64,000 bases of DNA from Candidatus Microgenomates bacterium (GTDB lineage: Bacteria; Patescibacteriota; JACPGU01): positions 73,045 through 137,044 of the forward strand of contig JACPGU010000003.1 of NCBI GenBank assembly GCA_016188915.1, written 5' to 3'. The position numbers and the translations under genes are program-made. Position 1 is the stretch's first letter, and each line of letters opens with the position of its first letter. Shown here piece after piece: positions 7,178-63,016 of the stretch. Under the pieces are notes generated by a model that made no database searches, was not told the origin of the DNA, and saw only the letters and a list, made by a program, of their open reading frames with translations.

Positions 7178-7447
7178 ATGGATACCAAAGAAAAAACCAT
7201 CATCAATTTCAAAAAAGCCCAGAGTTCGCTCGGCAAAATCGTCAAAATGGTGGAGGACGACAAGTATTGCATTGACATCATGCAACAAAATCTTGCGGTA
7301 ATAGGTCTACTCAAATCAGCCCACCAAATGCTGATGGAGGGGCATCTTCATTCCTGTTTTCAGCAAGCTATCAGTACAAAAAATGAAAAAAAGAAACGAC
7401 TAATGACAGAAGAAATCTTGCAGGTGACTAAATTGGCTAATAAGTAA
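7178..7447 (+). CDS. csoR: CsoR/RcnR/FrmR-family metal-sensing transcriptional repressor, Cys-His-Cys (CsoR-type) fingerprint
   Basis: DUF156 signature KYCIDIMQQ...SAHQML..GHLHSC. Cys/His/Cys ligand positions fit a Cu(I)-type CsoR rather than an RcnR H-C-H-H pattern. Confidence 0.7.
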   Translation: MDTKEKTIINFKKAQSSLGKIVKMVEDDKYCIDIMQQNLAVIGLLKSAHQMLMEGHLHSCFQQAISTKNEKKKRLMTEEILQVTKLANK

Positions 7448-7458
7448 AAGGAGGTTCT

Positions 7459-7956
7459 ATGAAAAAAATAGACCCGATGATTTTGGTAGTAGCCTCTATC
7501 GCCATTCTCGTTGGCGTCGGCATTTTTTCCACATTTTTCTCTTTTGAGGGTGAAGATGCGACCCAATATCAGAGTAGCACTAGCGAAAGGCCAAAAATAG
7601 TTATTGCGGAAAAAGAATTTGATTTCGGCGATATTGCTCTCCAAGACATCAAAACAAAAGAGGTAGAGGTCAGAAACGACGGGCAGAAGCCCCTGATCCT
7701 TTCCAATTTTTCCACTTCTTGCAATTGTACCTTTGTCCAGCTAATCCAGGGCGACAAAGAAAGTCCTAGATTTTCCATGCACTATACGGACAAATGGCAA
7801 GCAGAGATTGTTCCCAATGAAAAGGCCTTGGTGCGAGTGATTTATCAACCGAGTCTGATGCCGGTGCAGGGGAAGGTGAATAGGTCTGCGGTTTTCAAAA
7901 CCAACGATCCGGACAATCCTTCTGTGGTCATCAATTTTACCGCTAATGTTCAGTAG
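7459..7956 (+). CDS. DUF1573-domain protein, N-terminal TM anchor
   Basis: FDFGDIALQDIKTKEVEVRNDGQKPLILSNFSTSCNCT matches the DUF1573 consensus FDFG..G....F.F.NtG..PL.I..v..SCgCT. Confidence 0.65.
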   Translation: MKKIDPMILVVASIAILVGVGIFSTFFSFEGEDATQYQSSTSERPKIVIAEKEFDFGDIALQDIKTKEVEVRNDGQKPLILSNFSTSCNCTFVQLIQGDKESPRFSMHYTDKWQAEIVPNEKALVRVIYQPSLMPVQGKVNRSAVFKTNDPDNPSVVINFTANVQ

Positions 7957-7958
7957 CA

Positions 7959-8636
7959 ATGCTTTACCTTGTCATCATCAATGGTCTGATCGACTCTTTC
8001 AATCCTTGCGCTATTGGCGTGCTCTTGTCGTATCTAGCAATCGCGCTTTCTTTGCGAGTCAAAAGAAGCGCCTTCATCTCTTTTGGTCTGGTTTATATCT
8101 TGGCCACCTACGCCACTTACTTTTTGATCGGGCTGGGAATGCTCAAAGTAATGCATCTTTTTGGCGTTCACAATTTCTTCGGCTGGCTGGCGGCCATCCT
8201 CATTCTCTTTCTGGGCGTCTTTCATCTCAAAGAATATTTCTGGCCGCATCTGCGCGTTCCTTTCCTTTCCGATTTTTTGAGTCGTTGCCGGATGCCGAGA
8301 TGGAATAGGGAGGTGACTATTGCCTCCGCCTTGGTTTTGGGATTTCTAATCGGTATTTGCGAATTTCCCTGTTCGGGAGGAGTGTATCTGGCCACGGTTG
8401 GCCTCTTGACTGTCAAGGCCACTTTCTGGCAGGGCATTTTTTACTTACTGGCCTACAACGCCATGTTCATCTTGCCCTTGGTAATAATCTTCGTTTCTAT
8501 TGGCAACGCGCTTGTTTTCTCCCACTTGCAAAAATTGCAGACCAGCACTTTCGCCATTGTTAAGCTCATCATGGGAATTTCCATGTTAGTTTCGGGGGGC
8601 TTGCTCCTCGCTTGGCTTTTGGCGGCCTTGGTTTGA
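7959..8636 (+). CDS. DsbD/CcdA-like (PF13386-like) thiol-disulfide transmembrane protein
   Basis: ~6 TM helices. Membrane-embedded Cys motifs FNPCAIGVLL and ICEFPCSGGVYL resemble the paired-Cys helices of CcdA/DsbD-type reductant transporters. Confidence 0.45.
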   Translation: MLYLVIINGLIDSFNPCAIGVLLSYLAIALSLRVKRSAFISFGLVYILATYATYFLIGLGMLKVMHLFGVHNFFGWLAAILILFLGVFHLKEYFWPHLRVPFLSDFLSRCRMPRWNREVTIASALVLGFLIGICEFPCSGGVYLATVGLLTVKATFWQGIFYLLAYNAMFILPLVIIFVSIGNALVFSHLQKLQTSTFAIVKLIMGISMLVSGGLLLAWLLAALV

Positions 8637-9212: not shown

Positions 9213-9228
9213 AAGGAAATTTGACCAA

Positions 9229-9262
9229 AAAAAAGACGGGTGGTGTGCCCGTCTTTTTTGAA
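9229..9262 (+). terminator. Rho-independent terminator
   Basis: aaaaaaaagacgggtggtgtgcccgtcttttttg: GC stem gacggg/cccgtc with a T-tract. Confidence 0.75.
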
Positions 9263-9571
9263 ACACTAATGAAAAACGAGATTGTCTTAACCTTTTTTCT
9301 CTGTCGCTCTGAAACGATCCTGAAAGTCGCTGTAGTTCTCGTTGCCTCCTTTTGGGTGGATGACCTTCTCGCCTTCGTTTCCAGACATGATAATTACCGC
9401 CCTCTCCAAAAGAAATTTTTATTGAAACTACGCAGGTTCGATGTGGTCTGATTGTATTTATGGGTGTAGTGAATTTTTAACCCCATCGCGGGTAGCCCAC
9501 TATCGAGCCTGCCTTGATTTTATCTCTTCCTTTCCCCGAAAAATAAGGAAAAAGAGGAGAAAATACTATCC

Positions 9572-9602
9572 AGGCCTGTCGAGGGAGCACCTCGACAGGC
9601 CT
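9572..9602 (-). terminator. Perfect 13-bp hairpin; terminator for the giant minus-strand gene
   Basis: aggcctgtcgagg-gagca-cctcgacaggcct. Minus strand continues into a T-rich run (tattttctcctctttttcc). Confidence 0.6.
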
Positions 9603-9624
9603 AAACCAGTTAATTTCAGTCTTT

Positions 9625-12600
9625 CTATAGCCCCGTGAAATTAAGCATACTGTTTTTCTTGAGGTCAAGCGTGGTGCTAGCGGGGGAGAATCTAGCGTCC
9701 ATCTTCGATACTCCTACCTGCCAAAGCCCCGCTGGCAGAGTAATCTGATAGTAGCCGTTTCTGTTCGTGTAGGCGGAGATATTGAGCGGGCCGTTGAATT
9801 TCACCGCTACCCCCTGAATGGGCGTACCTCCTTTTTTCACATAGCCGTAGGCGAGATAGGTGGGTAGAGCGGTGAAATTGATTCGCTGATCGGTGATGGC
9901 GTTGTAAGAAATGGAATTGAAATAATAGCCATTTTTTGTGGCCATCAAACGGCCGGCGCCGGTTTCTGTGGGAAGAGAATAATAACCAGAGACATTCGTT
10001 ATTGCCCTTTCTTTGTCGTTGGAGATTACGACATTCGCCAAGGCTTTTCCATAGCGGTCTTTGACGAAACCGGTGATGGTGAGTTTGCGGACGGGGGTTA
10101 AAGTGAAATCTTGCAGACGCGTTCTGCCATCAGCCATAACGATATTGGAAACCAATCCGTACAGATAGCCATTTAGGTCAACCTGCACATGATAAACGCC
10201 GGTTGGCAGATTGGCTATGGTATAAAAACCAGCATCATCGGTGGTAGCGGTGAGGGTGGCAGTTTTGAGCGTCTTGACAGTAGCTCCTTTTAGCGGTTTT
10301 TTGCTTTCTCCGTCTATCACGAACCCGGAAATAGAATTTTTGCTAGCGATAATATAGTCGGCTGTTTGCACGGGAGATACCTCTTGAGTTGTTCTGTCTA
10401 TGGTCAGATATTTAATGGCCATGGTCTTGTTGACCGCGATTGGTTTGGCTGGATCGTATTTTGCGGATTGTTTCGTCGGTGTACCACCATTAGTAGTGTA
10501 GTAGATATCTATTGCTGTGCCAGCTGAATTTTTGAAAGTGGCCGTCACTGGTTGCGGATAGGTACCGGGGGAGTGGTTCAAGGTGAGTTGGCTAGGAGAG
10601 AAAACTTTTATTTTCAGAATCTCCACATTGTCAATTTTGTCAGAAGAGACCGCATAGCCTTCTCCTAGCATATCCTGCATTTTTCTGGCAAAGGGGGCTT
10701 TGTCGGCGTTATTAGCCCAGCGAGGTTGAAAAATAATCTCGGCATTATCTTTGGTAATGCCTTTCCATTTTTCCATACCAGCGAGAGTTTTATCTGCTTC
10801 ATCCAGTCGCAGAAGTTCCCCATATTTTTTGATTTGTTCTATTTTGCCACTTTCTTCGAGGGCTTTTTTCAGGCCATCGACACTTTCTATCGGTTGATTG
10901 CCATAATATATTTCGTGCAAACGATATTCATTTTTGCCACCATTTTTGATGGTCTGTAGAATATCAATAGAGCCCTTTTTTGGCTGTCCGGTCTTTTTCC
11001 AAATGTAGCTAAAAGGTTGTTCCAATTCTTTGGTTCCGGCCGTTAAAGCATCAAAACGTTTTAACTGAAAAAGGTAAGAAGCTTTGTTGGCTACGTCTTT
11101 CGCAATATTGTCTATTACAGAGCTGATACCGGGAATATCTTTGTTTTTGGCTATGATGCTAGCAAAATCTTCTAGCTCTTTGCCTTTATAGATCTCTTTT
11201 CTGACAATAGTATCTATGCTCTCTGCTGTCGCTTTGTTTATTTTTTGGAAATGCAGAAGAGCTTCATCTAGATGGTCTAACGCTTCTTTTTTTATCTCTA
11301 CTAATGTTTTTATGGTGCCAGACAGCTCTTTATCTACTTCGTCAATGTGTGGCAAGATATCATTAGCCCATTTTTCGCCCTCTTTGACCATTCTGGAAAA
11401 TGTAGTCAGCTTTATGCTCTTTGGCAAAATCTTAATGCCTTCTTTTATCACAGGGCGAAGACTGGCTTTTCCTACAATTCCTCCGATCAAAGGTAGCCCC
11501 AAAGAGATGATAATCTCGGCCGCTTTTTCTTCGTCGCTGGCCTTGCTTGACGACAAGAGGGTGACGTCTAGCCCCCAGTAGTCAAACGTAGGCAAAATCT
11601 CTTTGGCGGCGTAGTTGTCCATACCTATCACCTCAAAGGTGACTCTGCTATTGATTTTTGTTGACAAGGGATCATTTTTTGACATTACTGAAAAAGTTAC
11701 CTCTTTTTTGGATGAGGCATCAGGGGGAACTTTGTAAAACATATCTATTTCTCTGACCTCTCCTTTTTCCAGTTCAAATTCTAATTGTCCTTGTTTGTAA
11801 TCGCCGTCCCAGAATGAGCACTCGCTTATACCAAGATACCTAAATGGACTTTTACAGACTGCTTCAGGAAAACCGAAATAGATAGACGAATCGCCATTTG
11901 AACTGATAATCGCCGTATCCTTGGAGTCTCCGGCATTTATCACCTGTATTCTGACAGCTCCGTTTTTGCCATGACGATAGGGGATGTAGCCTATTTCATG
12001 GATATTTTGAGGGAAGGTTTGGTCTATCGGCAGATTGTCGGCAGTGGCATAGACGGGGTGGCCATCGATGGACTTATTTGTAAGTAAATCTTTGATATCT
12101 AATATATCAAAGAAATAATTTATGACTTTTTGCTTAACAACGATAGTGGCCGATTTGCTACTTGCCAATCCCGCGGTGTCTTTAACGGTAAGAGTAATAG
12201 TGTGAGAGCCTGCCGATAATTTGTCGATGCTCAAAAACCCACCCGAGCCAATCCGATTGCCATTATCTTGCCAGTAGTAGTCAATAATGGGGCCTTCTGC
12301 GTCGTGGCTAGTGGTAGCATTCAGGAGGATTGGAGTATTTTCATCTGGGCTTGATGGAGAAAAAGTAAAATCGGCGATAGGTGGTTGATTGATCGGCACC
12401 GGGTCAATAGATGGGTCTAAGCAGAAATTTAGCGTGATGGAATTGGAACGAGAGGTGACAAGGTTTTGGTTCCAATCTTCCCATTCTGTCCCCGACCAGG
12501 GTTGCATTTCGGCATAGATAGGGATGTTGTAGCAAGAGCCTGCTTTGTATTTGGTTTTATCTTCAATATTGAATCCAAAATTGGCTAACGCATAAGTATT

Positions 12601-13716
12601 CCCTTTGTCTGCAGAACCAAAAGGTTTGAGATAGAATTGATCGCCGGCATAATATTTTATCGTGACAGAATTTTCTTGTTTTTTCTCTACTGTTATATTA
12701 AGGCCGATACTCCCTCGACTAGTAACCGTAACTTCTTTGAGAGTGCTTTTATCTCCTGTGGCGTAGCCGAAGTAAATATTTGTCAAAGAATTGGCACCAC
12801 CTGTTATCGGTTGTGGGGTAACGGTCGTATCGGGTGGAGGCGGAGGATTGTCGTATGTTTCTATGGTCACTTGGTCTGAAGATGTCCTCCCCAGTGTGTC
12901 TTTGACAGTAAGAGTTACGATATGTGTGCCAACGGTAGCAAAAAAGTATAATTTGTAATTACCAGAAGTAAGCGATACGCCATTTTCCGTCCAAGTATAT
13001 TCTGTTATTGGATAACGAGAGTCGTATTGGCTTTTGGTTCCATCAAATATCGCAGAAATAGTCTTAGCTATTTTTTGATCCGACCCAGCATTAGCTAGTA
13101 ATGAGATTGGTGGAGGAGGGGTTGTGTCTTCTACTTTTATATTAATGAGTTTTACATTCCATCCTTGCTGATCGGTACTGACAGTAGAGCCAGTAGCCGG
13201 ATATCTTTTGTATGTATCTGGGTTATAATTACTACGTGGCCACTTATCTTTCGCATGCATAGCTACTCTGTATTTAATAATTTGGTTGCCTGTTTGGGTT
13301 GCCCTAAATGTTAAGCTATATGAACGAGAGTAGCTCGTTAATGGATCGCCGCTTCCTTCATAAGAATATAATTTTTCGGTAGATAGTAGGTTTTGCTCAT
13401 CAGAGCCACTGTGATATAAAAGACTTGACTCTTTGTAATAAAACCATTGTCCCCCGTCACTATTTTTGTAACTGCTCTCTACGGCCAATCCTGCCGTGTA
13501 GCTAACATCAAGGAAATAAGGAGAGGCAGAACCCCCTGTATTCGAGACAGTAAAAGAGATAATTTTGGCTTTACCCTTTTCGATAGTAAAGACGGAGTCG
13601 GTATTGACTGTCACCATTGGTATCGGCTCCTCGTACGCTTTTGCTGGCAGTATCGGTGGGAAAAGAGAAGATACCATCATTCCCGTAAGCAAAAAAATAC
13701 CCGCCTTTTTAACCAT
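9625..13716 (-). CDS. Giant secreted multi-domain surface protein (1363 aa): signal peptide, 2 PKD-like domains, chitobiase/Fn3-like domain, 3 carboxypeptidase-regulatory-like domains
   Basis: Start MVKKAGIFLLTG... (ATG 13716). PKD-like segments (IADFTFSPS...HTITLTVKDTAG; ...HIVTLTVKDTLG). CHB_HEX_C-like segment (DIYYTTNGGTPT). Three CarboxypepD_reg-like repeats (ISGFVIDGES...GVYHV; ITGFVKDRYG...; YGYVKKGG...). Confidence 0.7.
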   Translation of the reverse strand: MVKKAGIFLLTGMMVSSLFPPILPAKAYEEPIPMVTVNTDSVFTIEKGKAKIISFTVSNTGGSASPYFLDVSYTAGLAVESSYKNSDGGQWFYYKESSLLYHSGSDEQNLLSTEKLYSYEGSGDPLTSYSRSYSLTFRATQTGNQIIKYRVAMHAKDKWPRSNYNPDTYKRYPATGSTVSTDQQGWNVKLINIKVEDTTPPPPISLLANAGSDQKIAKTISAIFDGTKSQYDSRYPITEYTWTENGVSLTSGNYKLYFFATVGTHIVTLTVKDTLGRTSSDQVTIETYDNPPPPPDTTVTPQPITGGANSLTNIYFGYATGDKSTLKEVTVTSRGSIGLNITVEKKQENSVTIKYYAGDQFYLKPFGSADKGNTYALANFGFNIEDKTKYKAGSCYNIPIYAEMQPWSGTEWEDWNQNLVTSRSNSITLNFCLDPSIDPVPINQPPIADFTFSPSSPDENTPILLNATTSHDAEGPIIDYYWQDNGNRIGSGGFLSIDKLSAGSHTITLTVKDTAGLASSKSATIVVKQKVINYFFDILDIKDLLTNKSIDGHPVYATADNLPIDQTFPQNIHEIGYIPYRHGKNGAVRIQVINAGDSKDTAIISSNGDSSIYFGFPEAVCKSPFRYLGISECSFWDGDYKQGQLEFELEKGEVREIDMFYKVPPDASSKKEVTFSVMSKNDPLSTKINSRVTFEVIGMDNYAAKEILPTFDYWGLDVTLLSSSKASDEEKAAEIIISLGLPLIGGIVGKASLRPVIKEGIKILPKSIKLTTFSRMVKEGEKWANDILPHIDEVDKELSGTIKTLVEIKKEALDHLDEALLHFQKINKATAESIDTIVRKEIYKGKELEDFASIIAKNKDIPGISSVIDNIAKDVANKASYLFQLKRFDALTAGTKELEQPFSYIWKKTGQPKKGSIDILQTIKNGGKNEYRLHEIYYGNQPIESVDGLKKALEESGKIEQIKKYGELLRLDEADKTLAGMEKWKGITKDNAEIIFQPRWANNADKAPFARKMQDMLGEGYAVSSDKIDNVEILKIKVFSPSQLTLNHSPGTYPQPVTATFKNSAGTAIDIYYTTNGGTPTKQSAKYDPAKPIAVNKTMAIKYLTIDRTTQEVSPVQTADYIIASKNSISGFVIDGESKKPLKGATVKTLKTATLTATTDDAGFYTIANLPTGVYHVQVDLNGYLYGLVSNIVMADGRTRLQDFTLTPVRKLTITGFVKDRYGKALANVVISNDKERAITNVSGYYSLPTETGAGRLMATKNGYYFNSISYNAITDQRINFTALPTYLAYGYVKKGGTPIQGVAVKFNGPLNISAYTNRNGYYQITLPAGLWQVGVSKMDARFSPASTTLDLKKNSMLNFTGL

Positions 13717-13819
13717 TGGCGGGTGAAACTTTCTTTTGACACAGGAGAGAGAGCCTCCTAGAATTCCCCAGATTGGATGTTTTTTTCCTGACATAAGATC
13801 TCCTTTCTTTCGGTTAGTT

Positions 13820-14080
13820 TTATTCTAATTTTTCTCCGAAAATTTTGCCGCATTCCAGATGAAAACTCCACAAGTGTTTCTGGCAATGAGGGCAGGAGCG
13901 TTCCAGAATACGGGCTTTTTTCTGGTGGCAGGCAGGACAGCTCTCTCCTTCTTTCAAATCGGTAGCCGTCGCTGTGACGCAATGGGCGACTTTGTGATAA
14001 TGGTTTTTACAAGCGGGGCAAGTAATAATATTGGTCGGTTGAGTCGGTTGTTTGCAAGTAGCGCAAAGAGTGTCGCTCAT
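13820..14080 (-). CDS. Multi-CxxC zinc-finger protein (87 aa)
   Basis: MSDTLCATCKQPT...CPACKNHYHKVAHC...CPACH...CPHCQKH. Four CxxC pairs plus His, treble-clef/PHD-like. Confidence 0.5.
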   Translation of the reverse strand: MSDTLCATCKQPTQPTNIITCPACKNHYHKVAHCVTATATDLKEGESCPACHQKKARILERSCPHCQKHLWSFHLECGKIFGEKLE

Positions 14081-14180
14081 AACGCTGATATTATTTTTTC
14101 TTCCAGTATAATGAAGCTCAAAAAGAAAACAAAGGAAAAAATAGAGAAAAAAAATCGTCCTCTTGTTGAGGGCGATTTTT

Positions 14181-16028
14181 TTAGAATTTTTCTTCAGCAA
14201 TGTATATTCCCAGTCCAGGCTCCAATTTGACCGAAAAATCAACCGCGCTACCGCTCATAGAAAGCTTCAGTTTTTTGCCTAAATGTTTCTCTAATGTTTT
14301 ATTGAGCGGACTAATGATTTTGCTTTGGAATTCGCTTCTGTCTGATGCGTAGGAAGAAGGAGGGAATTTTTTGTGAGAAACCCACTTTTTTATTTCACTA
14401 ATCAAGATGGTCAAAATAGCAATAGTTTCTCGCGAGGTGTAGATTTCTTTGGAGGTGATTTTTTTACCGCGAATGAAGATATCATTTTCACTGGCGTCCA
14501 ATACAATATCGGCGGTGGCGCGAGTGGTCTCGTATTCTTCTTTGGTTTGTGTCTGGATTTGTGTTGATCCATCGGTGGACAAATGAGTTATTTTGACCGC
14601 TCCGGCAGAAATATAATCAGAATAAATTTTGTGATCAAGACATTGTTCAATAGTTACGCCTTCTTTGCCTATGCCGTCCAGCCAAGATAGGTATTGGATG
14701 CTCAAAGTTTTTTCTTTGGTATTTTTGCGCAATTTTTCGATAATGCTGTCTATGTTATCTCTCAGCCCACGGTAGGGGGCGACGAAAAGAACAGGCCCCT
14801 TTTTGCCCGGACCGCTCATCTTGCATCCTACCGGCTCGTCTAATTTATTAGCCTCATGGAGCATAATATTGCAAATATAATTGAGTTTTTCTGATGAAAC
14901 ATTGAACAGGGCCAGAGCGTTTTGGCTGGCGTTGATGGCTTCCGCTAATTCTTTGAAATTAGGGTCTGAGGCTCCCAAGTTCAAAAGATTGTAGAGACAG
15001 ACAAAAACTTCTACGGCGGTGGCGTTGACGGCGCGGACGTAGTTCCTGAAAACGGCGTCTTTGACATCCAGGCTCCTGGCCAATAGTCCTGACGGAAAAG
15101 CATTGGCTATTTTTCCTATTTTTTTTCTAGCCGAAGAGTAGGTTTTTTCTAGTTCGTTTTCAAAATCAGCGATGGAGCGAATGACATTAGCTGCCGGCAT
15201 ATAGTCTCCGGAATAAATGATGCCAAAATCAATAGGCCAATCTCCGGAGATACCACCTAGCTCGTCAAGTGACAGGCCACGATAGGCGAATTGATCATAG
15301 AGATCTAGCGATTTGCTATAGGCGGGCAATCTTGCTCCGTGAGTCGGCGTTTCGCGACCTTCTCTTTTTTCGGTGAAAAATATGATAGGATAGGCGCTTT
15401 TGACACAAGAGGCGAAGACAGAGCTTCCCGCCGAAGCTCCACCGTGAAAAATAGCCTCAAATTTGCAAGCAAAGCGAAAAATAGTATTAAAATCTGTATC
15501 GTGAGGCAATTCGGAGACAGGGCGTTGATTGATTTCTTCAACTACGGAAGGCTCTATTTGTTTGGCAAAAAGCAAAATACTGGTTGCCAGCGTTACGGCA
15601 AAAGTGGCGGAAGTATTGTAGCCGTTGGCGACAGGAGCTTCTATGATATAAAAATATGAAAGCCCCTGATATCTATCTCCCAGGACATCTTCCAGATATT
15701 TTTTGGTGAGCGCGGAGAGTTTCTCATGGGCTTCGGCGTATAGTATTTTTGAAAGGACTATTTTGTCAAAACATTGCTTAGCGGGGTTGAAGACATAACC
15801 TCCGCCATCAGAAACGGAGCCATCATCGGTTGGTTTGAGGCCAATATACACTTTTAAGGGCACTTTTTGAAAGATGCCCAGTCCACCATATAGAATAGCG
15901 TATTCTCCCGCAATCCAAAAAGCGCCCGACGCGGAAGTGGCGATCGAGCACTTGGAAAAAAACTCCTGATATATTTCAGGAAACGATTCCTGTAAGCTTT
16001 CGCTGTTCATGGGAATACGACTTTCCAT
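14181..16028 (-). CDS. GHMP-kinase-family protein with ~200-aa C-terminal extension of unknown function (615 aa)
   Basis: Motif 1 ATSASGAFWIAGEYAILYGG, motif 2 PVANGYNTSATFAV, motif 3 CKMSGPGKKGP, matching mevalonate/galacto-kinase-type GHMP motifs. The last ~200 aa have no recognisable family. Confidence 0.6.
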   Translation of the reverse strand: MESRIPMNSESLQESFPEIYQEFFSKCSIATSASGAFWIAGEYAILYGGLGIFQKVPLKVYIGLKPTDDGSVSDGGGYVFNPAKQCFDKIVLSKILYAEAHEKLSALTKKYLEDVLGDRYQGLSYFYIIEAPVANGYNTSATFAVTLATSILLFAKQIEPSVVEEINQRPVSELPHDTDFNTIFRFACKFEAIFHGGASAGSSVFASCVKSAYPIIFFTEKREGRETPTHGARLPAYSKSLDLYDQFAYRGLSLDELGGISGDWPIDFGIIYSGDYMPAANVIRSIADFENELEKTYSSARKKIGKIANAFPSGLLARSLDVKDAVFRNYVRAVNATAVEVFVCLYNLLNLGASDPNFKELAEAINASQNALALFNVSSEKLNYICNIMLHEANKLDEPVGCKMSGPGKKGPVLFVAPYRGLRDNIDSIIEKLRKNTKEKTLSIQYLSWLDGIGKEGVTIEQCLDHKIYSDYISAGAVKITHLSTDGSTQIQTQTKEEYETTRATADIVLDASENDIFIRGKKITSKEIYTSRETIAILTILISEIKKWVSHKKFPPSSYASDRSEFQSKIISPLNKTLEKHLGKKLKLSMSGSAVDFSVKLEPGLGIYIAEEKF

Positions 16029-16149
16029 ATTACGAGCATAGCATAACTAAAAGTGAATGTAAAGGGTTCCACTTTTTCTTTTTCGCTTGATAAAGCTATT
16101 TTGGCAAAGTCGGACTTTGCCGAGGGGAACTTTGCCGAGGAGAAGGAAA

Positions 16150-16300
16150 AACCCTCTTGCTTTTTGGTAAAAATTGTGCTACATTGAATACGTTAAATCT
16201 GTCTAGGCGACAGCGAAAAACCCTGCCTCTTGTGAGAAGCGGGGTTTTTCATGTCTTATCGCTAGGACACGACGTTCGACATCGTGTCCTAGCGAGCTTC
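16150..16300 (+). promoter_or_regulatory. Structured intergenic region: promoter-like element, short transcript ending in an intrinsic terminator (16221-16249), and a 14-bp-stem palindrome (16259-16295)
   Basis: Extended -10-like tgctacatt at 16177-16185. Hairpin ccctgc-ctcttgtgagaa-gcgggg then ttttt. Perfect palindrome tcgctaggacacga-cgttcgaca-tcgtgtcctagcga. Second promoter ttgtca...tgctatgat ahead of ORF 16366. Confidence 0.35.
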
Positions 16301-25777: not shown

Positions 25778-27892
25778 TTATGGCTTAAATACTTGGAGAC
25801 CGATAGAGCTATCCAGGATAAAGAGTCTGGGATTGTCCGAGATTGGCTCAAAATCTACACTCATCGGATTGGTAAGATTGCCATCTGGGACAGAGGCGAT
25901 CTCCCAATCTAGAATTATTGATGCTCCGTCGTCAAAAAGCCCAACTACACGATCTCGTTCGTTGTCAGCGTAGACAACTTGTGTGCCGTTGGATAATTTT
26001 CGGACGGTTATGCTGGTGCAGTCAGCACTAATATTATAGCTTCTTTGCCAATTGCCTGCACGATTGAACTTTTTGATTGCGCGGTTGCCTCGATCTAGAA
26101 CCCAGACACTATCTTCAGTAACGCCTACTCCGATTGGTTCTTTGAGCTGAGCGTCATTGGTGCCAAAGGTGCCGATAATCTCGCCGGTGGTTTTACCGTC
26201 AGATTCGTAGAAAACAATTATGCGACCGTTTTTTGAATCAGCGGCAAAGATTTTGCCGCTTTCTCCAGTGCAATCTATGCCTGCCGGATCGTTTAACCCG
26301 ACTGATATGCCCATCGTCATTTTCCAGGTCATGGTTCTGTAGTCTACCTTGACTTTAATTATTCGATCCTTGTTTTGATCGGTAATATAAAGATGGTTGT
26401 TACAGAAGCCAAGATTATTGGGGTTAGTGATAGTCTCTGGCAAATCGACGATAGCAGAAGAATCCAGACTGACCCAATCATTAAGATTGGAACCGCCGGT
26501 AGTTCGTAAATGCATCCCATTGCCATCTAAAATCGCTAGTTGCTCATCGAACTCATAGACTAGATTAGTGCCGGAGACGGAGACTTTGTTGACGAAGGTC
26601 GGACGAATGTTACTACCGCCCATATTCTCTCCTCCCCCTCCGCTTGTCACCACCGTAATCGTGGTCGTGCAGGTATTGCTTCCGCCGGTGCCGGTGACAG
26701 TGCCGGTCGCCGTGTAGGTGCCGGTCGCCGTGTAGGTCTTACTCGTGCTTCCGCTCGAACTTGAGCTGGAGTACGAATTCGACCCGTCGCCGAAATTGAT
26801 GGAAATCCCCGTGAACCCCGAGCCGCTCACCGACCAGCTGATGCTGGTGGATGAATTGACATTGGGGTTGCTGGGACTGGCGGACAAACTGCAGGTTGGC
26901 GCGGACGGATTGGTGGTCGTTCCATAATAGATGGAGGTGGAGACCTTGGTCTGCGAGTTGTTCGGATCTTCCGAACTCCAGCCCGCGTCATCCACGCACC
27001 AAAGCTTGACAGTGTTATCGCCAGAGGCAAGGGTTATTTCTCGCTCCCAGGGGATCCATGTGTCCTGCCCGATCTTGTCAGGGTCGTCGTAATCCACCAT
27101 TTTCGCCGTATCTGAACCCACCTGCACCCACAGGTTGCAATCAGGGCGTTTGCTCCCCCCAATTATCGGGGTGGAATCGGTGGTTGGCGACTCCACCGTA
27201 TCAATGATAGGCGGAGCCGGCCTGGTGGTGTCCAACATCGTGTCAAAAACCGTCCCACCACTGGGTCTGTTGGACGAATCGCGACAGACAAAAATGTGAT
27301 GGTTCGGTCCTTCCACTAGGGTCAAAGAATAGGTGGACTGGGTGGACCCGTCGCGATTGACGATAATCTCCTGGCCGTCCATCTCCAGCGTCGGGCAATT
27401 GCTCCCCGTTTTGAAGGTGACGGTCATGGGCGAAGTAGTGACTGTGGCCGGAATGGTGCCGACAAATCCAGGCGCCGAAGGACCTCCTTCAGGGCGATCG
27501 TTGACGATGACGGTGGCCGTATAAGGGCCGGCGGCGTTTGTGCCGTCCGTCAAAGTCACCGAGATGCCGAAGGTGCCGGTCTGCGAGTAGAGGTGGTAAT
27601 TGCTGCAAGTCACCCCTTCGTTTTTCGCGCCACCGCCCCAGCTGAAATTGCAGAACAAAGAAGCACCTTGTCTGCCCCCTGACGGTGTGCCGGAGCAACG
27701 GACGGAGTCGTTCTGGTAAATCGTGGTCGGTTCACAGCCCCAATTGAGGAGTTTCAAGGGCTTCTCTTCCGTGGGGGGCGGAGCCGAAGTGCCTCCTCCT
27801 CCGCCACAGCCGGTCAGAAACAGGGAAAAAACAATCGTCAAAATGCCCGCGACCCGGGCAGGGTTCCAACCACAAAGGTTGAATTTTCGCAT
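25778..27892 (-). CDS. Lipoprotein with PKD-like domain(s), Gly/Ser/Thr-rich linker and C-terminal NHL-repeat beta-propeller
   Basis: Lipobox LFLTGC. TYTATGTYTATGTVTGTGG linker encoded by an 18-bp tandem repeat at ~26702-26737. NHL-like repeats (GKIFAADSKNGRIIVF; VWVLDRGNRAIKKF). Confidence 0.6.
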   Translation of the reverse strand: MRKFNLCGWNPARVAGILTIVFSLFLTGCGGGGGTSAPPPTEEKPLKLLNWGCEPTTIYQNDSVRCSGTPSGGRQGASLFCNFSWGGGAKNEGVTCSNYHLYSQTGTFGISVTLTDGTNAAGPYTATVIVNDRPEGGPSAPGFVGTIPATVTTSPMTVTFKTGSNCPTLEMDGQEIIVNRDGSTQSTYSLTLVEGPNHHIFVCRDSSNRPSGGTVFDTMLDTTRPAPPIIDTVESPTTDSTPIIGGSKRPDCNLWVQVGSDTAKMVDYDDPDKIGQDTWIPWEREITLASGDNTVKLWCVDDAGWSSEDPNNSQTKVSTSIYYGTTTNPSAPTCSLSASPSNPNVNSSTSISWSVSGSGFTGISINFGDGSNSYSSSSSSGSTSKTYTATGTYTATGTVTGTGGSNTCTTTITVVTSGGGGENMGGSNIRPTFVNKVSVSGTNLVYEFDEQLAILDGNGMHLRTTGGSNLNDWVSLDSSAIVDLPETITNPNNLGFCNNHLYITDQNKDRIIKVKVDYRTMTWKMTMGISVGLNDPAGIDCTGESGKIFAADSKNGRIIVFYESDGKTTGEIIGTFGTNDAQLKEPIGVGVTEDSVWVLDRGNRAIKKFNRAGNWQRSYNISADCTSITVRKLSNGTQVVYADNERDRVVGLFDDGASIILDWEIASVPDGNLTNPMSVDFEPISDNPRLFILDSSIGLQVFKP

Positions 27893-28144
27893 TACAAGCC
27901 TCCCGCCGGCAAGCCGGCATTTTTTTGGTTTTTCTCGCTTATAAAAGGGCGAGCGAGAGGGGCAGAAGCCTTCTCTCCTTTTCGTGGCTTAATTTAGCAT
28001 TTTTTTATAATTTAGTCAATGATTTTTGTCTGCTACTGACACATCCGACCAAACAATGGAACATCGCCAAGAAAAATATTGTCTTTCGCTACTTTTTCTT
28101 TGGCGCCAGGAGTGCTATAATCAGGTTAAGACTAAAAAATACAA

Positions 28145-58188: not shown

Positions 58189-60228
58189 ATGACATCGAAA
58201 GAATTGCGACAGAAATTTTTGGATTTTTTTGAAAAGAAGGGTCATATAATTATCCCTTCAGCTTCTTTGATTCCGGAAAATGATCCGACGACGCTCTTTA
58301 CTAGCGCCGGCATGCAGCCAATGATGCCGTATTTGCTTGGCGCCGAGCATCCGGGCGGTAATAAAGTAGCGGACTCACAGAAATGTTTTCGCACGCAAGA
58401 CATCGACGAGGTTGGAGATCAGCGCCATACGACTTTTTTTGAGATGCTTGGTAATTGGTCATTTGGTGAATATTTTAAGCGTGAGCAGATACAGTGGATG
58501 TCGGAATTTCTTTTCGATGAATTGATGCTTGACCCAAAGCGGGTGTATGTGACGGTCTATCGTGGCAATACCGAGATAAATATCGGAAAAGACGAAGAGT
58601 CGGCTGAGTTGTGGCAAAAAACATTTGAGGAGCGAGGTGTCGATGCCGAGATCGCTGATATGGCTGAAGAGGATGGCATGAGTGGTGCCCGTATTTTTTA
58701 TTATGGTGATAAAAAAAATTGGTGGTCTCGAGCAGGTGTGCCACACGATATGCCACTCGGTGAACCAGGTGGACCCGACAGCGAGATGTTTTGGGATTTC
58801 GGTGAGGATCTCGAGCTTCATGAAAGATCGCCATACAAAGACCAAGTCTGTCATGTGAACTGTGATTGCGGAAGGTTTTCCGAGATTGGCAACAATGTCT
58901 TTATGCAGTATGTAAAGGTTGGTACGGGTTTTGAGCCACTATCAAAGAAAAACGTGGACTTTGGCGGGGGGCTGGAGCGCATGACGGCTGCTACGAACGA
59001 CTTGCCGGACATCTTCATGATCGATGTCTTTGATGCTGCGCGGGAAAAGCTTGAGGATATAAGCGACAAAAAGTATGGAGAGAACGAGGAAGAAACGCGC
59101 GCCTTTCGGGTGATCTTGGATCACATTAGGGCCGCGATGTTTTTGGCAGCAGATGGTGCGGTGCCGTCCAACAAAGACCAGGGCTACTTCACTCGTCGCC
59201 TCATCCGTCGTGCGATCCGATATGGGCATCAACTGGGTATTTCCGATAGTTTTTGTGGTGATATCGTAGACGCATTTATCACTACTTACGGCGAAGCATA
59301 TCCAGATATTGGCACAAATAGGGACACGATTGTTGAAGAAGAAGAAAAGTTTAATCGCACTATAGTTGAAGGACTCAAGGTGGCACACAAGATGTTTGCC
59401 GAGAAGACACCGATAGAAAAATCCAAATTCCATAAATTCATGTTGCTTCATGACCACACTCAGATTTTGAAAGAATTATGGAAAAAGAAAAGAGGAGGGG
59501 AGGATTATTCTATTCAGAAAGCGAACATAACCCAAGGGGAGATCGACAATGCGATAATAACCGGAGAAGAAGGGTTTTTGCTTTATCAATCATATGGTTT
59601 CCCGATGGAGATGATTATTGAGTTGGCGACAGAGGCACGACTCTTTTTTCATCGCGGTGAATTTCGTCGTGAACTCGAAAAGCATCAAAACTTATCTCGT
59701 AGTGCTTCAGCGGGGAAATTCAAAGGCGGGTTGGCGGATAATTCCGAGGAAACGACGAAGCTTCATACTGCCACGCACCTTCTCCTCAAATCTTTGCGGA
59801 CGGTTTTGGGCGACGAAAATATCAATCAAAAAGGCAGTAATATCACGGCTGAAAGATTGCGGTTTGATTTCAATTTTCCCCGCAAACTAGAACCGGATGA
59901 GCTGAAAAAAATAGAAGAAATGGTTAATGAGCAAATTAAACGCGATCTCAAGGTAGAGCGGCTGGAAATGTCGTATGATGAAGCAAAAAAAATGGGGGCG
60001 ATAGGCGTTTTTGAAAATAAATATGGAGAAAATGTTTCAGTTTATAAAATGGGGGGTGATCCCTCGACTCCCGATGGTCGCTCGGGACAAGCTTTCAGCT
60101 TGGAGCTTTGTGGCGGTCCACACGTGGAGCATACGGGACAGCTCGGGAGCTTCAAAATAATCAAAGAAGAGGCCTCTTCGGCCGGGGTTAGGAGGATTAA
60201 AGGGACACTAGGAGGGGGTAAGAAATAA
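58189..60228 (+). CDS. alaS: Alanine--tRNA ligase, short form (catalytic + tRNA-binding + editing domains; lacks C-Ala domain)
   Basis: MTSKELRQKFLDFFEKKGH. FTSAGMQPM. VADSQKCFRTQD. Editing-domain HTATHLLLKSLR. 680 aa. Alternative ATG at 58177. Confidence 0.8.
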   Translation: MTSKELRQKFLDFFEKKGHIIIPSASLIPENDPTTLFTSAGMQPMMPYLLGAEHPGGNKVADSQKCFRTQDIDEVGDQRHTTFFEMLGNWSFGEYFKREQIQWMSEFLFDELMLDPKRVYVTVYRGNTEINIGKDEESAELWQKTFEERGVDAEIADMAEEDGMSGARIFYYGDKKNWWSRAGVPHDMPLGEPGGPDSEMFWDFGEDLELHERSPYKDQVCHVNCDCGRFSEIGNNVFMQYVKVGTGFEPLSKKNVDFGGGLERMTAATNDLPDIFMIDVFDAAREKLEDISDKKYGENEEETRAFRVILDHIRAAMFLAADGAVPSNKDQGYFTRRLIRRAIRYGHQLGISDSFCGDIVDAFITTYGEAYPDIGTNRDTIVEEEEKFNRTIVEGLKVAHKMFAEKTPIEKSKFHKFMLLHDHTQILKELWKKKRGGEDYSIQKANITQGEIDNAIITGEEGFLLYQSYGFPMEMIIELATEARLFFHRGEFRRELEKHQNLSRSASAGKFKGGLADNSEETTKLHTATHLLLKSLRTVLGDENINQKGSNITAERLRFDFNFPRKLEPDELKKIEEMVNEQIKRDLKVERLEMSYDEAKKMGAIGVFENKYGENVSVYKMGGDPSTPDGRSGQAFSLELCGGPHVEHTGQLGSFKIIKEEASSAGVRRIKGTLGGGKK

Positions 60229-60270
60229 AAAAGGACGCTGGTGCAAAATGCGCGCAAGCGTCCTAATGGA

Positions 60271-60297
60271 CGGCCTACTTGCGTAGGCCGGTTTTCC
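60271..60297 (+). terminator. Terminator hairpin after alaS
   Basis: cggcctac-ttgc-gtaggccg followed by gttttcc. Confidence 0.55.
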
Positions 60298-60301
60298 CTG
60301 T

Positions 60302-61552
60302 TCAGGTAATGGGTATCATGCCGATTCCGAGGAAGCGAATCCTGGGGATATTGTTTTCGGTACCCGATCCGTGGACTGAGTAGTTCGGATCGTCGCACCC
60401 ACCCCTGGTGGCCATGATTTCTTCGAGCAACCCTTTTGTTGCAAGACCCAGCTCACTGCTGTGTCCTTCCGGTGACGCTTGGTTGGCATTCACGATCGCG
60501 GTTACATCGAGGTCTTGAACATTACCTGCTTTCGCGGCATCGACGATGGCAATCTTCGTCTCGCCGGAGAGAGCGCCTTCGTATTCTTTCACGCATGACG
60601 CCAGTTTCACGGCATCTTCCTGGCTCTGAATGCCCCATCTTCCGACGAACGCTCGCAGAAAAGCATTTCGGGACCTGCCCGTCCGAAACTTTTTGACGAA
60701 TTTCACCGCAGGATCGATAAGACCGATTCTCTCGAGGACAAGGGTATTGAGATAATCCTCGGCAGCCGCCACGCGCCCGACTTCTGCTTCTTCGGCGGCC
60801 AAAAGATATGCAATGTTTTCCAGCTCCTCGACTGGCGTATCCGTATTGCAGCGCACGATGCGCGCCTCCGCCGCACCGAAGATGGCGGTCAGTGCCTCGA
60901 TGCCGCCAAATTCCGTTGTTTGCACGAGCTTGGCGAGTTTGACCAGTTCTTCCGTCAGAAGTTCTTCATTCCATTTATGGGCTTGTAGGAAAATTCTGAT
61001 GGTGCGATGAATCCCCGTTCTGGTCAGGAAAGCGTTCGCCAGCATTATCGCGTCTTCAGTGGTGGTCAGGAGACCACTCGCTCGTGCGAGTATTGCCTCC
61101 TCGAGGATGTCGGACCCACGCCCATCACAGAAAGGATCGCGCACTTGTTCCGCCAGTTCGCAGAGATCGGCGAGCGTCAAGCCGGGTGGCAGATCGAGAT
61201 TGTTCTTGAATGCTTCTTTGATAACCGCAATCGTTTCGTTGACCCTATCTTTGCTGTCCTCTTCGTCCACCATTCCGATCAGATCGCAGTAGTTCTCGAG
61301 ATCCAATGCTACATTCGAGTTCCTGGTCACTCTTCGGAGCCATTCGTTTCTTACTGCCGGCGACCGGAGGGCTTGAACAAGTTGCTTTGTATCGTTCTTT
61401 CTGTGCCAGACAGCAAACGCCCTCTCGATGATGGCACTTTCGTGTGCCGCCCGATGCTCGTCGTCCTTGAGCTGGTTCGCCAATTCGCACAACTCATGAA
61501 TCGTTGACGATCCCCGAATCTTCTCCCCAAACGTTTTCGGCCAAAAGCTCAT
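60302..61552 (-). CDS. Hypothetical alpha-helical protein (416 aa) encoded by a GC-rich (~55%) compositionally foreign gene
   Basis: Long ORF, ATG at 61552 (MSFWPKTFGEK...). Base composition clearly differs from the ~38% GC of surrounding genes. No recognised motif. Confidence 0.5.
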   Translation of the reverse strand: MSFWPKTFGEKIRGSSTIHELCELANQLKDDEHRAAHESAIIERAFAVWHRKNDTKQLVQALRSPAVRNEWLRRVTRNSNVALDLENYCDLIGMVDEEDSKDRVNETIAVIKEAFKNNLDLPPGLTLADLCELAEQVRDPFCDGRGSDILEEAILARASGLLTTTEDAIMLANAFLTRTGIHRTIRIFLQAHKWNEELLTEELVKLAKLVQTTEFGGIEALTAIFGAAEARIVRCNTDTPVEELENIAYLLAAEEAEVGRVAAAEDYLNTLVLERIGLIDPAVKFVKKFRTGRSRNAFLRAFVGRWGIQSQEDAVKLASCVKEYEGALSGETKIAIVDAAKAGNVQDLDVTAIVNANQASPEGHSSELGLATKGLLEEIMATRGGCDDPNYSVHGSGTENNIPRIRFLGIGMIPIT

Positions 61553-61759
61553 TTCTTTCGTACTCCTCGGTAGATATTTTGTCGCAACGCGACGGACTCG
61601 CAAGAGCGAGTATTCGACCTGGCATTTTGTTAAACGACAATCTGTCGCCTATCTTACTGCTTTTTTGTACTAATGTCAATATATCGCTCAAATAAGCTGT
61701 TTCAAGGTAGCGCTGGGTTTGTTCTTCCGTTCTCTCGCTGTTGCGGATATAATATATCC

Positions 61760-63016
61760 ATGAGTTTTCTTGATCGCCTCTTGGGCTACAATGAGCTAAA
61801 TCACCACGCTATTGCGCTGGATGTGGGAACGGAGTTTGTCAAAACTTTGGTTTTTCGAGTAGATCAGGGCAAAGCCTATATTTTGGGTGCCTCGAGAACA
61901 CGCCAGGAGCTCAAAGATATGCAGGGGGGAGCGATTACTGATATTTCCGGAGTAATCAAAAATTGTCTCAAATCCCTAGAAGAAGCCTGCGATATGGCCA
62001 AAATTACTCCAGATAAAGTAATCATGGGCATTGCCGGTGAATTGGTCAAAGGAGCAACCACAACTATTTCCTATACGAGAAAAGAGCCGGCTAAAAAAAT
62101 TGACGCCAAAGAATTAGACAATATTATAAAAAAAGTCCAAGAAAAAGCCTTCGGTCAAATTCATCACCAAATCGCCTGGGAAACGGGTAAGGACGATATT
62201 GACATTCATCTAGTTAACGCGGCGATTGCCGATGTCAAAATAGACCGCCATCCGGTAAGTAGTCCTATCGGGTTTACGGGTAAAAATATCGTTGTTTCAG
62301 TTTATAATGCCTTTTCGCCAATGATTTATCTGGGAGCTTTGGAGTCGGTGGCCGAAAACCTAGGGCTAAATCTCATCGGTATCGCGGCTGAACCTTATGC
62401 CGTGGCTAAATCCATGGGATTGTCTCAGGGTCAGGATTTTTCCGCTATTTTCATGGACATTGGTGGCGGGACGACGGATATCGCGGTTGTTCGTGGTGGC
62501 GGTTTGGAGGGGACTAAGATTTTTTCTATCGGCGGGAGAGCTTTTACCAAAAGAATAGCCAGAGAGATGAATACTAATTTTGCTAAAGCGGAAGAAATGA
62601 AACTGGCTTACGCTAATAATGACTTGGCCGAAAAAGAAAAGCAGGCAGTAGGCGAGATACTGCAGGAAGATGTTTCTATTTGGCTGGAGGGTGTTAAAAT
62701 GGTCTTAAAAGAATTTGGCGATGAGCAGATGCTGCCTTCTCGAATTTTACTCTGTGGCGGCGGTTCTCTTTTGCCTGAAATAAAAAAATCTTTAGAAAAA
62801 TCAGATTGGGCTAAAGATTTAGCCTTCGCTAAAAAAGCCAATATCACTTTTATCAAACCCAAAGATGTGGAAAATGTGATAGATCAAACGAAATTATTGG
62901 ATAGCCCATCGGATATTACGGCTATGGCTTTGGCCAATCTTGCGATAGAATTGGTAGAGGGATTGAGCCCGATGGCAGAAATGTTGCGCAAAACAGCGGA
63001 AGGCATTACACATTAG
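61760..63016 (+). CDS. ftsA: Cell division protein FtsA (actin-like ATPase)
   Basis: IALDVGTEFVKTLVF phosphate-1. IMGIAGELVKG. MDIGGGTTDIAVV phosphate-2. ILLCGGGS adenosine motif. Confidence 0.8.
   Translation: MSFLDRLLGYNELNHHAIALDVGTEFVKTLVFRVDQGKAYILGASRTRQELKDMQGGAITDISGVIKNCLKSLEEACDMAKITPDKVIMGIAGELVKGATTTISYTRKEPAKKIDAKELDNIIKKVQEKAFGQIHHQIAWETGKDDIDIHLVNAAIADVKIDRHPVSSPIGFTGKNIVVSVYNAFSPMIYLGALESVAENLGLNLIGIAAEPYAVAKSMGLSQGQDFSAIFMDIGGGTTDIAVVRGGGLEGTKIFSIGGRAFTKRIAREMNTNFAKAEEMKLAYANNDLAEKEKQAVGEILQEDVSIWLEGVKMVLKEFGDEQMLPSRILLCGGGSLLPEIKKSLEKSDWAKDLAFAKKANITFIKPKDVENVIDQTKLLDSPSDITAMALANLAIELVEGLSPMAEMLRKTAEGITH

Follow-up and report, generated by a model that had tools for sequence, protein, structure and literature searches.

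Why should a gene resembling those of small-molecule kinases stand on the same strand as, and close to, a small zinc-finger gene and a gene for a giant surface protein? This question is raised by positions 9,625 to 16,028 of a 64,000-nucleotide stretch of contig JACPGU010000003.1 from a Candidatus Microgenomates bacterium (Patescibacteriota), the whole of which is referred to here as the window. Three co-directional open reading frames (ORFs) on its minus strand are concerned; they were announced by an earlier sequence-only reading of this DNA, are borne out by the ORF list and are called K (16028-14181), Z (14080-13820) and A (the large gene ending at 9625):

14181..16028, minus strand: K, 615 residues, GHMP fold with a C-terminal extension (ORF, AlphaFold2 (AF2) model, family search)
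13820..14080, minus strand: Z, PHD-like zinc-finger protein of 86 residues (12 invariant ligands, profile against PDB, Pfam)
9625..13794, minus strand: A, secreted or surface protein of 1389 residues, with corrected start (Pfam, start and ribosome-binding site (RBS), hydropathy)

The sequence-only reading took these genes for one operon, in which a small-molecule kinase would be coupled to an adhesin, and regarded the arrangement as undescribed; the latter point holds, no description of it having been found in the searchable literature. Judged from the comparison of related loci, K, Z and A would not form one operon, at least not simply, and the locus appears better described as a regulator with a dedicated promoter and variable cargo than as an enzyme and an adhesin in one operon. 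With a probability that we put at a little under 0.6, K is a one-component regulator, composed of a GHMP-type sensor and an OmpR/PhoB-type winged helix, which acts on pho-box-like promoters with variable cargo.

The first part of this proposal concerns the fold of K, which is entered at NCBI as MBI2448526.1, 'hypothetical protein HYV44_03165', Candidatus Microgenomates. In the AF2 model, built from a 74-sequence alignment (predicted local distance difference test score, pLDDT, 94; predicted template-modelling score, pTM, 0.92), residues 1 to about 450 fold as a GHMP kinase:

14673..16028, minus strand: K residues 1-452, folded as a GHMP kinase and proposed to sense a ligand or nucleotide (Foldseek, profile against PDB, column frequencies)

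A Foldseek search of PDB returned mevalonate kinase 8tfo as the best match (E 1.9e-19), followed by galactokinases, and the 50 listed of the 191 matches at E<=0.001 are all mevalonate kinases, galactokinases or N-acetylgalactosamine kinase. The profile of the K family also led to mevalonate kinase in PDB (E 3.8e-10), the K sequence alone giving E 0.15 against PDB sequences. No Pfam model was matched by the K of the window, even at E<=10; GHMP_kinases_N (PF00288) was matched by 34 of 74 family members, and the family consensus scored 47.5 bits with this model (cut-off 22.3) and 19.2 bits with the corresponding C-terminal model (PF08544; cut-off 21). K remains below the mevalonate-kinase equivalog TIGR00549 (31.9 bits against a cut-off of 163.05), residues 354-414 alone being aligned. 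No Response_reg match was obtained in K, and its N-terminal 450 residues are occupied by the GHMP fold, so that K does not qualify as a response regulator with a receiver.

It had been claimed that K carries all three GHMP motifs and is a bona fide small-molecule kinase. Motif I, GE(Y/H)xxxxGG, is indeed kept, and motif III reads KMSGPGKKG, but motif II is degenerate in the window (PVANGYNTSAT versus the standard PxGSGLGSSAA, with only G136 and S140 kept); at the level of the family its consensus is PxGxGLNSSGA, and column frequencies indicate that the glycine-rich motifs II and III are retained there. The equivalents of Lys13 and Asp204 of mevalonate kinase (rat numbering) are Ala36 and Ser202 in the alignment, and the two columns vary across the family (S/T/N/H/A and A/S/G, respectively), and the claim of an intact kinase is not supported. 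Since K lacks the catalytic lysine and aspartate of mevalonate kinase, it is proposed to be a sensor: K is probably not a metabolic enzyme, and its GHMP-fold domain probably still binds nucleotide and/or a small phospho-metabolite or sugar.

The second part of the proposal concerns the C-terminal extension, which had been announced as about 200 residues long and which is present, covering about 165 residues past the GHMP fold:

14514..14672, minus strand: K residues 453-505, linker subdomain, strand-strand-strand-helix (secondary structure of models, conserved columns)
14184..14513, minus strand: K residues 506-615, putative OmpR/PhoB-type winged helix (profile, Foldseek, Pfam and consensus, all below curated thresholds)

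The linker subdomain comes after a highly conserved junction (family consensus DYASWxDG; YLSWLDG, residues 446-452, in the K of the window). In a model of residues 455-615 (pLDDT 92) the linker is followed by three short strands, helix 1, a strand, short helix 2, long helix 3 and a beta-hairpin wing, and this order of elements resembles that of OmpR/PhoB DNA-binding domains. Helix 3, the predicted recognition helix, has the family consensus DRNExQSKIxxPL and reads DRSEFQSKIISPL in the K of the window. When the profile of the extension was searched against all PDB sequences, three of the five top matches were OmpR-family regulators, including DrrD, in register and at E 0.65-0.8, which is below curated thresholds. 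Foldseek gave BaeR as the best match of the extension (E 0.047, probability 0.66), with the DNA-binding domains of AdeR and BfmR further down, and Trans_reg_C (PF00486), matched by 6 of 35 members (best E 0.003), was the only Pfam family to recur among them as well as the sole, under-threshold match of the C-terminal consensus (E 0.035, 14.6 bits versus a cut-off of 26.2). An hhalign comparison with a three-sequence OmpR alignment showed the expected register at 9% probability and was treated as non-decisive; OmpR-family proteins, sought in the fetched loci for a better template, were not found there. On the weak but convergent evidence of four independent searches (PDB profile, Foldseek, Pfam with members and with the consensus), the last ~110 residues of K look like an OmpR/PhoB-type winged helix, and by analogy with that family K may bind DNA. 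Residues ~453-615 represent the best-conserved part of the K family, with the stretches DYASWxDG and SSYxxDRNExQSKIxxPL, and the most conserved residues of the whole family fall in the predicted recognition helix; such conservation across phyla fits a likewise conserved DNA target.

The K family is large. An exhaustive HMMER search, which was needed because a word-indexed protein search with K gave only two relatives, yielded 860 representatives at 50% identity (312 below 1e-30), nearly all of them ~600 residues long, aligned end to end and annotated only as hypothetical. Among GTDB species representatives, a search with a 10-sequence alignment identified 38 K loci, essentially all in Patescibacteria, including Berkelbacteria, Kerfeldbacteria, Curtissbacteria, Falkowbacteria, Magasanikbacteria, Uhrbacteria, Gracilibacteria, Microgenomates and Parcubacteria. 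No second K paralogue is present within the window. Related loci that were compared are designated by L-numbers, L002 being a duplicate contig of the window and L045 a duplicate of L021. The genes located 5' of K vary between loci. Immediately downstream of K, a Z homolog is found in 8 of 8 loci that carry Z (window, L002, L003, L007, L021, L041, L042 and L045), in L003 with an unrelated extra gene, preceded by its own copy of the motif described below, inserted between the two. Six of these loci are independent, because L002 and L045 are duplicates, and their K proteins share 29-46% identity with the K of the window where this was measured. The K-Z link is real and conserved at the level of gene order.

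What lies between K and Z provides the third part of the proposal. Two of the elements found there, the repeat motif and its -10, recur beyond A:

14148..14182, minus strand: terminator-like hairpin that overlaps the K stop and has A and U tracts (scan; fold dG -18.7 kcal/mol, z -3.9, U8 tail)
14125..14152, minus strand: tri-repeat motif copy 1, TTTTTTCTCTATTTTTTCCTTTGTTTTC, proposed K operator in the -35 region of the Z-A promoter (position weight matrix (PWM) 36.3 bits)
14105..14110, minus strand: -10-like TATACT, 25 nucleotides (nt) upstream of the Z start codon and starting 15 nt downstream of the third repeat
9538..9565, minus strand: second copy of the tri-repeat motif, TATTTTCTCCTCTTTTTCCTTATTTTTC, adjoining the A terminator on its 3' side (PWM 36.8 bits; -10-like TAAAAT at 9522-9517)

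The hairpin contains one C.A mismatch on this strand, so that some read-through is possible, and in L003, L021 and L042, too, the motif is preceded by such a hairpin, though its sequence differs. The motif itself is made of three TTTTC direct repeats with 11/10-bp spacing, and these repeats are invariant in six aligned K-Z intergenic regions. A regular expression taken from this alignment, and then a PWM, were used to scan 587 kb on both strands, corresponding to the window and 40 loci. The regular expression had 20 hits, every one on the K strand and 3' of K, including in loci without any Z; with the PWM, 36 hits on the K strand reached 20 bits or more, against no antisense score above 17. 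According to the PWM, the distance from the K stop to the first copy of the motif is 0-153 nt in 20 loci; additional copies stand before one downstream unit after another, to a total of 4 in L021, 3 in L042, 3 in L003 and 2 in the window. At an offset of 14-16 after the third repeat, the hexamer TAnnnT is present in 33 of the 36 copies versus 5% of random positions, and the element is therefore interpreted as a promoter where direct repeats in phase with the helix take the place of the -35 region. In a check set beforehand on three further K contigs, the motif occurred straight after the K stop in 3 of 3, one of the contigs ending inside it. Nothing on this motif was found in the searchable literature.

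The genes that follow the motif elsewhere encode unrelated small proteins, or are an aldolase-like gene, a GreA-like gene and others, and when the cargo proteins were clustered, Z was the one family to recur, with the proviso that small ORFs called automatically are uncertain. The conserved unit is K together with the motif promoter, the cargo changing across Patescibacteria.

Some individual loci deserve mention in this regard. Motif-driven units with a common 5' leader (...AGAAAATCA...ACATTAAAAATTAAAGGAG) were observed in L021 (10584-10700 and 14411-14520) and L042 (2435-2545), where the leaders stand before different or paralogous genes, which suggests that promoter and leader were duplicated together as a module. 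One metagenome-assembled genome (SRP011637_co1_138; L021, L027 and L030) possesses three K paralogues, and a motif copy accompanies each of them; in L030 the motif lies upstream, seemingly driving a 190-residue gene and K itself, a possible case of autoregulation. In a distant K clade of ~570 residues (L031, L038 and L040) a CYTH-domain gene overlaps the K start and a radical-SAM gene precedes it, in L033 a bona fide galactokinase is located 3' of K, and on visual inspection the genes that follow K in L022 and L023 resemble HAD genes, with an N-terminal motif of the DxDGT type. These clades are without the tri-repeat motif, and their neighbours may hint at the class of the ligand.

Taken as a regulator, K would operate as follows. 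A promoter of its own (16063-16035) would provide for its expression, with most transcripts ending at the hairpin 14182-14148. Ligand-loaded K molecules would then bind side by side on the three TTTTC repeats, one per helical turn, at the place of the -35 element, and bound K would recruit RNA polymerase to the -10 starting 15 nt downstream. In this genome K would in this way switch on Z-A and a second unit beyond the A terminator. The analysis shows the fold and family of K, the motif with its exclusive position and strand relative to K and its fixed spacing to the -10, and the K-Z linkage; DNA binding by K, activation rather than repression, the sensing of a ligand and any identity assigned to that ligand are the parts that we infer.

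Several observations weigh against such a role. About one third of the K loci are without a strong motif; these belong mostly to more divergent clades with K proteins of ~550-575 residues, and they include L006, L011, L020 and L022, in which the recognition helices are similar. The first repeat is often fused with the terminator U-tract, and part of the motif may have another cause. The motif could be read by another factor instead of K. Furthermore, a catalytic base is dispensable in some GHMP kinases, for instance homoserine kinase, and K could for this reason still be an enzyme. Listed with these points, and weighed neither way, is an exact-motif scan of metagenomes, in which 7 loci were found versus ~6 roughly expected by chance for this T-rich 25-mer, only one of them near K within the fetched stretch.

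The explanation that survives best beside the regulator is an enzymatic one, in which K would be a true enzyme that arose as a divergent paralogue of a mevalonate or sugar kinase, its C-terminal domain would serve oligomerisation or allostery instead of DNA binding, and another factor (such as a sigma factor or an unlinked activator) would read the tri-repeat promoter, which would simply tend to lie beside K. The retention of motifs II and III at the family level, the passing of the GHMP_kinases_N cut-off by the consensus, the sub-threshold scores of the winged helix and the true galactokinase or HAD-like genes beside K in distant clades all agree with it. It leaves unexplained, however, why the motif keeps a fixed place after the K stop and on the K strand over phylum-level distances while other neighbours change, and why the predicted recognition helix is the best-conserved segment of K; an enzyme is for these reasons considered unlikely.

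Less probable still is the single operon of the sequence-only reading, in which an active small-molecule kinase would be coupled to the zinc finger and the adhesin, for example by providing a phosphorylated precursor for modification of the adhesin. The genes are co-directional and close, K and Z are adjacent in all Z loci, the mismatch in the hairpin could allow read-through, and L007 and L041 are without a hairpin between K and Z. On the other hand, a terminator-like hairpin and a conserved promoter architecture separate K from Z in the window, which is the kind of boundary that the sequence-only reading had itself named as incompatible with one operon and which contradicts a single shared upstream control region. 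In addition, an unrelated gene intervenes in L003, K has a degenerate motif II and its family does not keep the catalytic residues. Conservation of the neighbourhood is found for K and Z but not for A, which is not kept with K beyond close relatives, the cargo being different at most loci. Z and A alone would fit an operon, with a gap of 25 nt and no hairpin between them.

It is also very doubtful that the motif belongs to an integron-like system of mobile or recombining cassettes, with the K-adjacent site as an insertion hotspot and the repeats as recombination sites. The variable cargo, the modular units of terminator, motif and gene, the multiple copies in L021, L042 and L003 and the extra cassette between K and Z in L003 would be in line with this possibility, but no recombinase is conserved in the neighbourhood, the motif has no inverted-repeat core, and its direct repeats, spaced by the helical turn and followed by a -10 at a constant distance, are the signature of a promoter. 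Least probable of all is that the motif acts as RNA, as a U-rich element in the 3' untranslated region or leader of transcripts that read through and to which K or another protein binds. The motif is indeed strictly strand-specific and often fused with terminator U-tracts, but the 15-nt spacing to TAnnnT is not explained by such a role, and where a hairpin exists the motif lies 3' of it, in DNA that would be mostly untranscribed.

The proposed cargo of K in this genome begins with Z. Its 12 metal ligands are invariant in 6 homologs and form a C4HC3 PHD-like cross-brace and a CCHC site; the eight ligands of the cross-brace are present, but with an H-x4-C spacing. In PDB the Z profile matched PHD fingers of KMT2C, KMT2D, WSTF and BPTF, from E 1.5e-5 (KMT2C) to 1.3e-2, as well as TAF3, and the Pfam PHD model (PF00628) gave 20.5 bits, under its cut-off of 24; these scores may be inflated because of the Cys-rich composition of Z. 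Compared with eukaryotic PHD fingers, Z has the same C4HC3 order of ligands and a similar spacing save for one step, and differs in having H-x4-C instead of H-x2-C, an extra CCHC site and the form of a stand-alone bacterial protein of 86 residues. To our knowledge, stand-alone PHD-like fingers have not been well described in bacteria.

A follows Z after 25 nt, without a hairpin between them, and is probably co-transcribed with it. Its start had been placed at 13716, giving 1363 residues, but 13794 is more likely, because an AAAGGAG RBS lies 6 nt upstream of it and the 26 additional residues are conserved in the L003 orthologue. The PKD, CarboxypepD_reg and chitobiase-type domains that had been recognized in A were recovered with Pfam, the protein being composed of a signal or anchor segment (residues 31-51), two PKD domains, an orphan central region, one CHB_HEX_C domain and three CarboxypepD_reg domains. 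The central ~500 residues (~555-1066) had no match in Pfam, PDB or a word-indexed protein search; they contain a hydrophobic Gly-rich segment (residues 757-779, IIISLGLPLIGGIVG) and then a charged stretch of ~280 residues. Similar segments were seen by eye in the giant proteins of L003 and L042, where BLAST finds no similarity. An orthologue of A is found only in L003, with the first ~73 and last ~235 residues as the conserved parts; the N-terminal region is related to a second giant protein of L003, and another CHB_HEX_C giant is encoded downstream in L042. Judging from these sequences, the giant proteins are domain mosaics.

A terminator 3' of A had been predicted, and a strong one was identified, beyond which the second motif copy and a small unit are located:

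9568..9606, minus strand: strong intrinsic terminator after A (17-bp stem, dG -33.8 kcal/mol, z -6.8)
9287..9388, minus strand: candidate ORF of 33 residues, MSGNEGEKVIHPKGGNENYSDFQDRFRATEKKG (GGAGAGG RBS; ~130 nt after the -10 of the second motif)

The candidate ORF is followed by a terminator-like hairpin (9260-9225) and has no counterpart among the genes called on the duplicate contig L002; the unit 9225-9565 could encode a mini-protein or a small RNA. At the equivalent position in L003, a motif copy drives the second giant secreted protein.

Upstream of K, two elements were identified:

16035..16063, minus strand: putative K promoter, TTTACA-17-TATGCT (scan; both hexamers conserved in L003)
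16101..16138, minus strand: two direct copies of TCGGCAAAGT and an inverted copy, palindrome GGCAAAGTCCGACTTTGCC, ~40-75 nt upstream of the K -35

The -10-like TATGCT ends 6 nt before the K start codon (ATG at 16028), with TACATT at equal distance in L003, and the K mRNA may therefore be leaderless. An alternative start, M7 (16010), is used in the Logan gene call and gives a protein of 609 residues. The window contains 13 matches to TCGGCAAAGT versus 4.2 expected, three of them in 16101-16138; the GGCAAAGT repeat or palindrome was ruled out as a family-wide operator, since it is conserved only in L003. Between two divergent promoters, a strong hairpin with A and U tracts occupies 16213-16252 (dG -26.6, z -5.8) and is kept in L003 with another stem sequence, and the divergent intergenic DNA between K and the upstream gene appears by eye better conserved than the 46% amino acid identity of K to its L003 counterpart suggests.

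As to the remainder of the window, a search with Rfam gave only a tRNA. Two regions, 26001-28000 and 60001-62000, have 51-53% guanine plus cytosine against a background of 33-46% and may have been horizontally acquired; the first holds a 704-residue PKD/NHL-repeat protein (25778-27892, minus strand) and the second a 433-residue ORF without a Pfam match (60302-61603, minus strand). On the plus strand, 7178-8636 contains a gene for a CsoR-like metal-sensing repressor (7178-7447), followed by those of a DUF1573 protein and of a 225-residue membrane protein, and looks like a small metal-responsive unit neighbouring the K-Z-A locus.

The components of the proposed system have precedents. The pho boxes of PhoB and the heptamer repeats of SARP regulators are short direct repeats one helical turn apart, which replace the -35 element at a fixed distance to the -10. 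In a similar way, the winged helix of K looks OmpR/PhoB-type and its proposed target consists of helically phased direct repeats in the -35 region, whereas K is without a receiver, BTAD or NB-ARC domain, carries its putative DNA-binding domain C-terminal to a GHMP fold and would read three TTTTC repeats instead of the two 7-bp half-sites of a pho box. In ROK repressors (NagC, Mlc and XylR), BirA and MocR, as proposed for K, an enzyme fold has become the sensing part of a regulator that binds DNA; ROK proteins, however, combine an actin-like ASKHA fold with an N-terminal winged helix, in contrast to the GHMP fold and C-terminal OmpR-type domain of K. No fusion of a GHMP domain to a DNA-binding domain was found described in the searchable literature. 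GHMP-fold proteins with a signalling rather than a catalytic role are known from yeast (Gal3p/Gal1p) and Caenorhabditis elegans (XOL-1), Gal3p binding galactose and ATP without kinase activity, but these are eukaryotic proteins that act via protein-protein contacts, have no DNA-binding domain of their own and are not specifically related to K. Mevalonate kinase and galactokinase provide the best fold and profile matches and share motif I, while K differs in its 165-residue C-terminal extension and in its location outside any mevalonate-pathway gene cluster. K would be a one-component regulator with a new architecture, although enzyme-fold sensors, GHMP regulators and promoters with repeats in place of the -35 are each already known. 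Microgenomates possess the mevalonate pathway (PMC6107057), which makes an origin of K as a paralogue plausible.

The regulation of transcription is very poorly known in bacteria of the candidate phyla radiation, whose genes are for the most part hypothetical. In this context, the present analysis yields a phylum-spanning protein family with a domain pairing that was not found described in our search, a defined cis-element with promoter geometry and a first list of the genes behind it. It also lowers a risk of mis-annotation, since K-like proteins could be miscounted as mevalonate kinases or galactokinases in metabolic reconstructions. A more far-reaching and tentative idea, the odds of which we consider to be clearly against it, is that the K family is a Patescibacteria-specific master switch, with a portable module (terminator, three TTTTC repeats and -10) expressing fast-evolving, lineage-specific cargo such as zinc-finger and other mini-proteins and giant mosaic surface proteins, the ligand of the sensor being perhaps a host-derived sugar, an isoprenoid precursor or a nucleotide. 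If this were true, such a switch would represent a conserved expression platform for the variable surface and secreted repertoire of episymbionts, working like an integron array but built on promoters instead of recombination sites. K and its motif define a testable regulon, which points to small proteins and giant surface proteins being switched together and may bear on how these bacteria sense, and attach to, their hosts.

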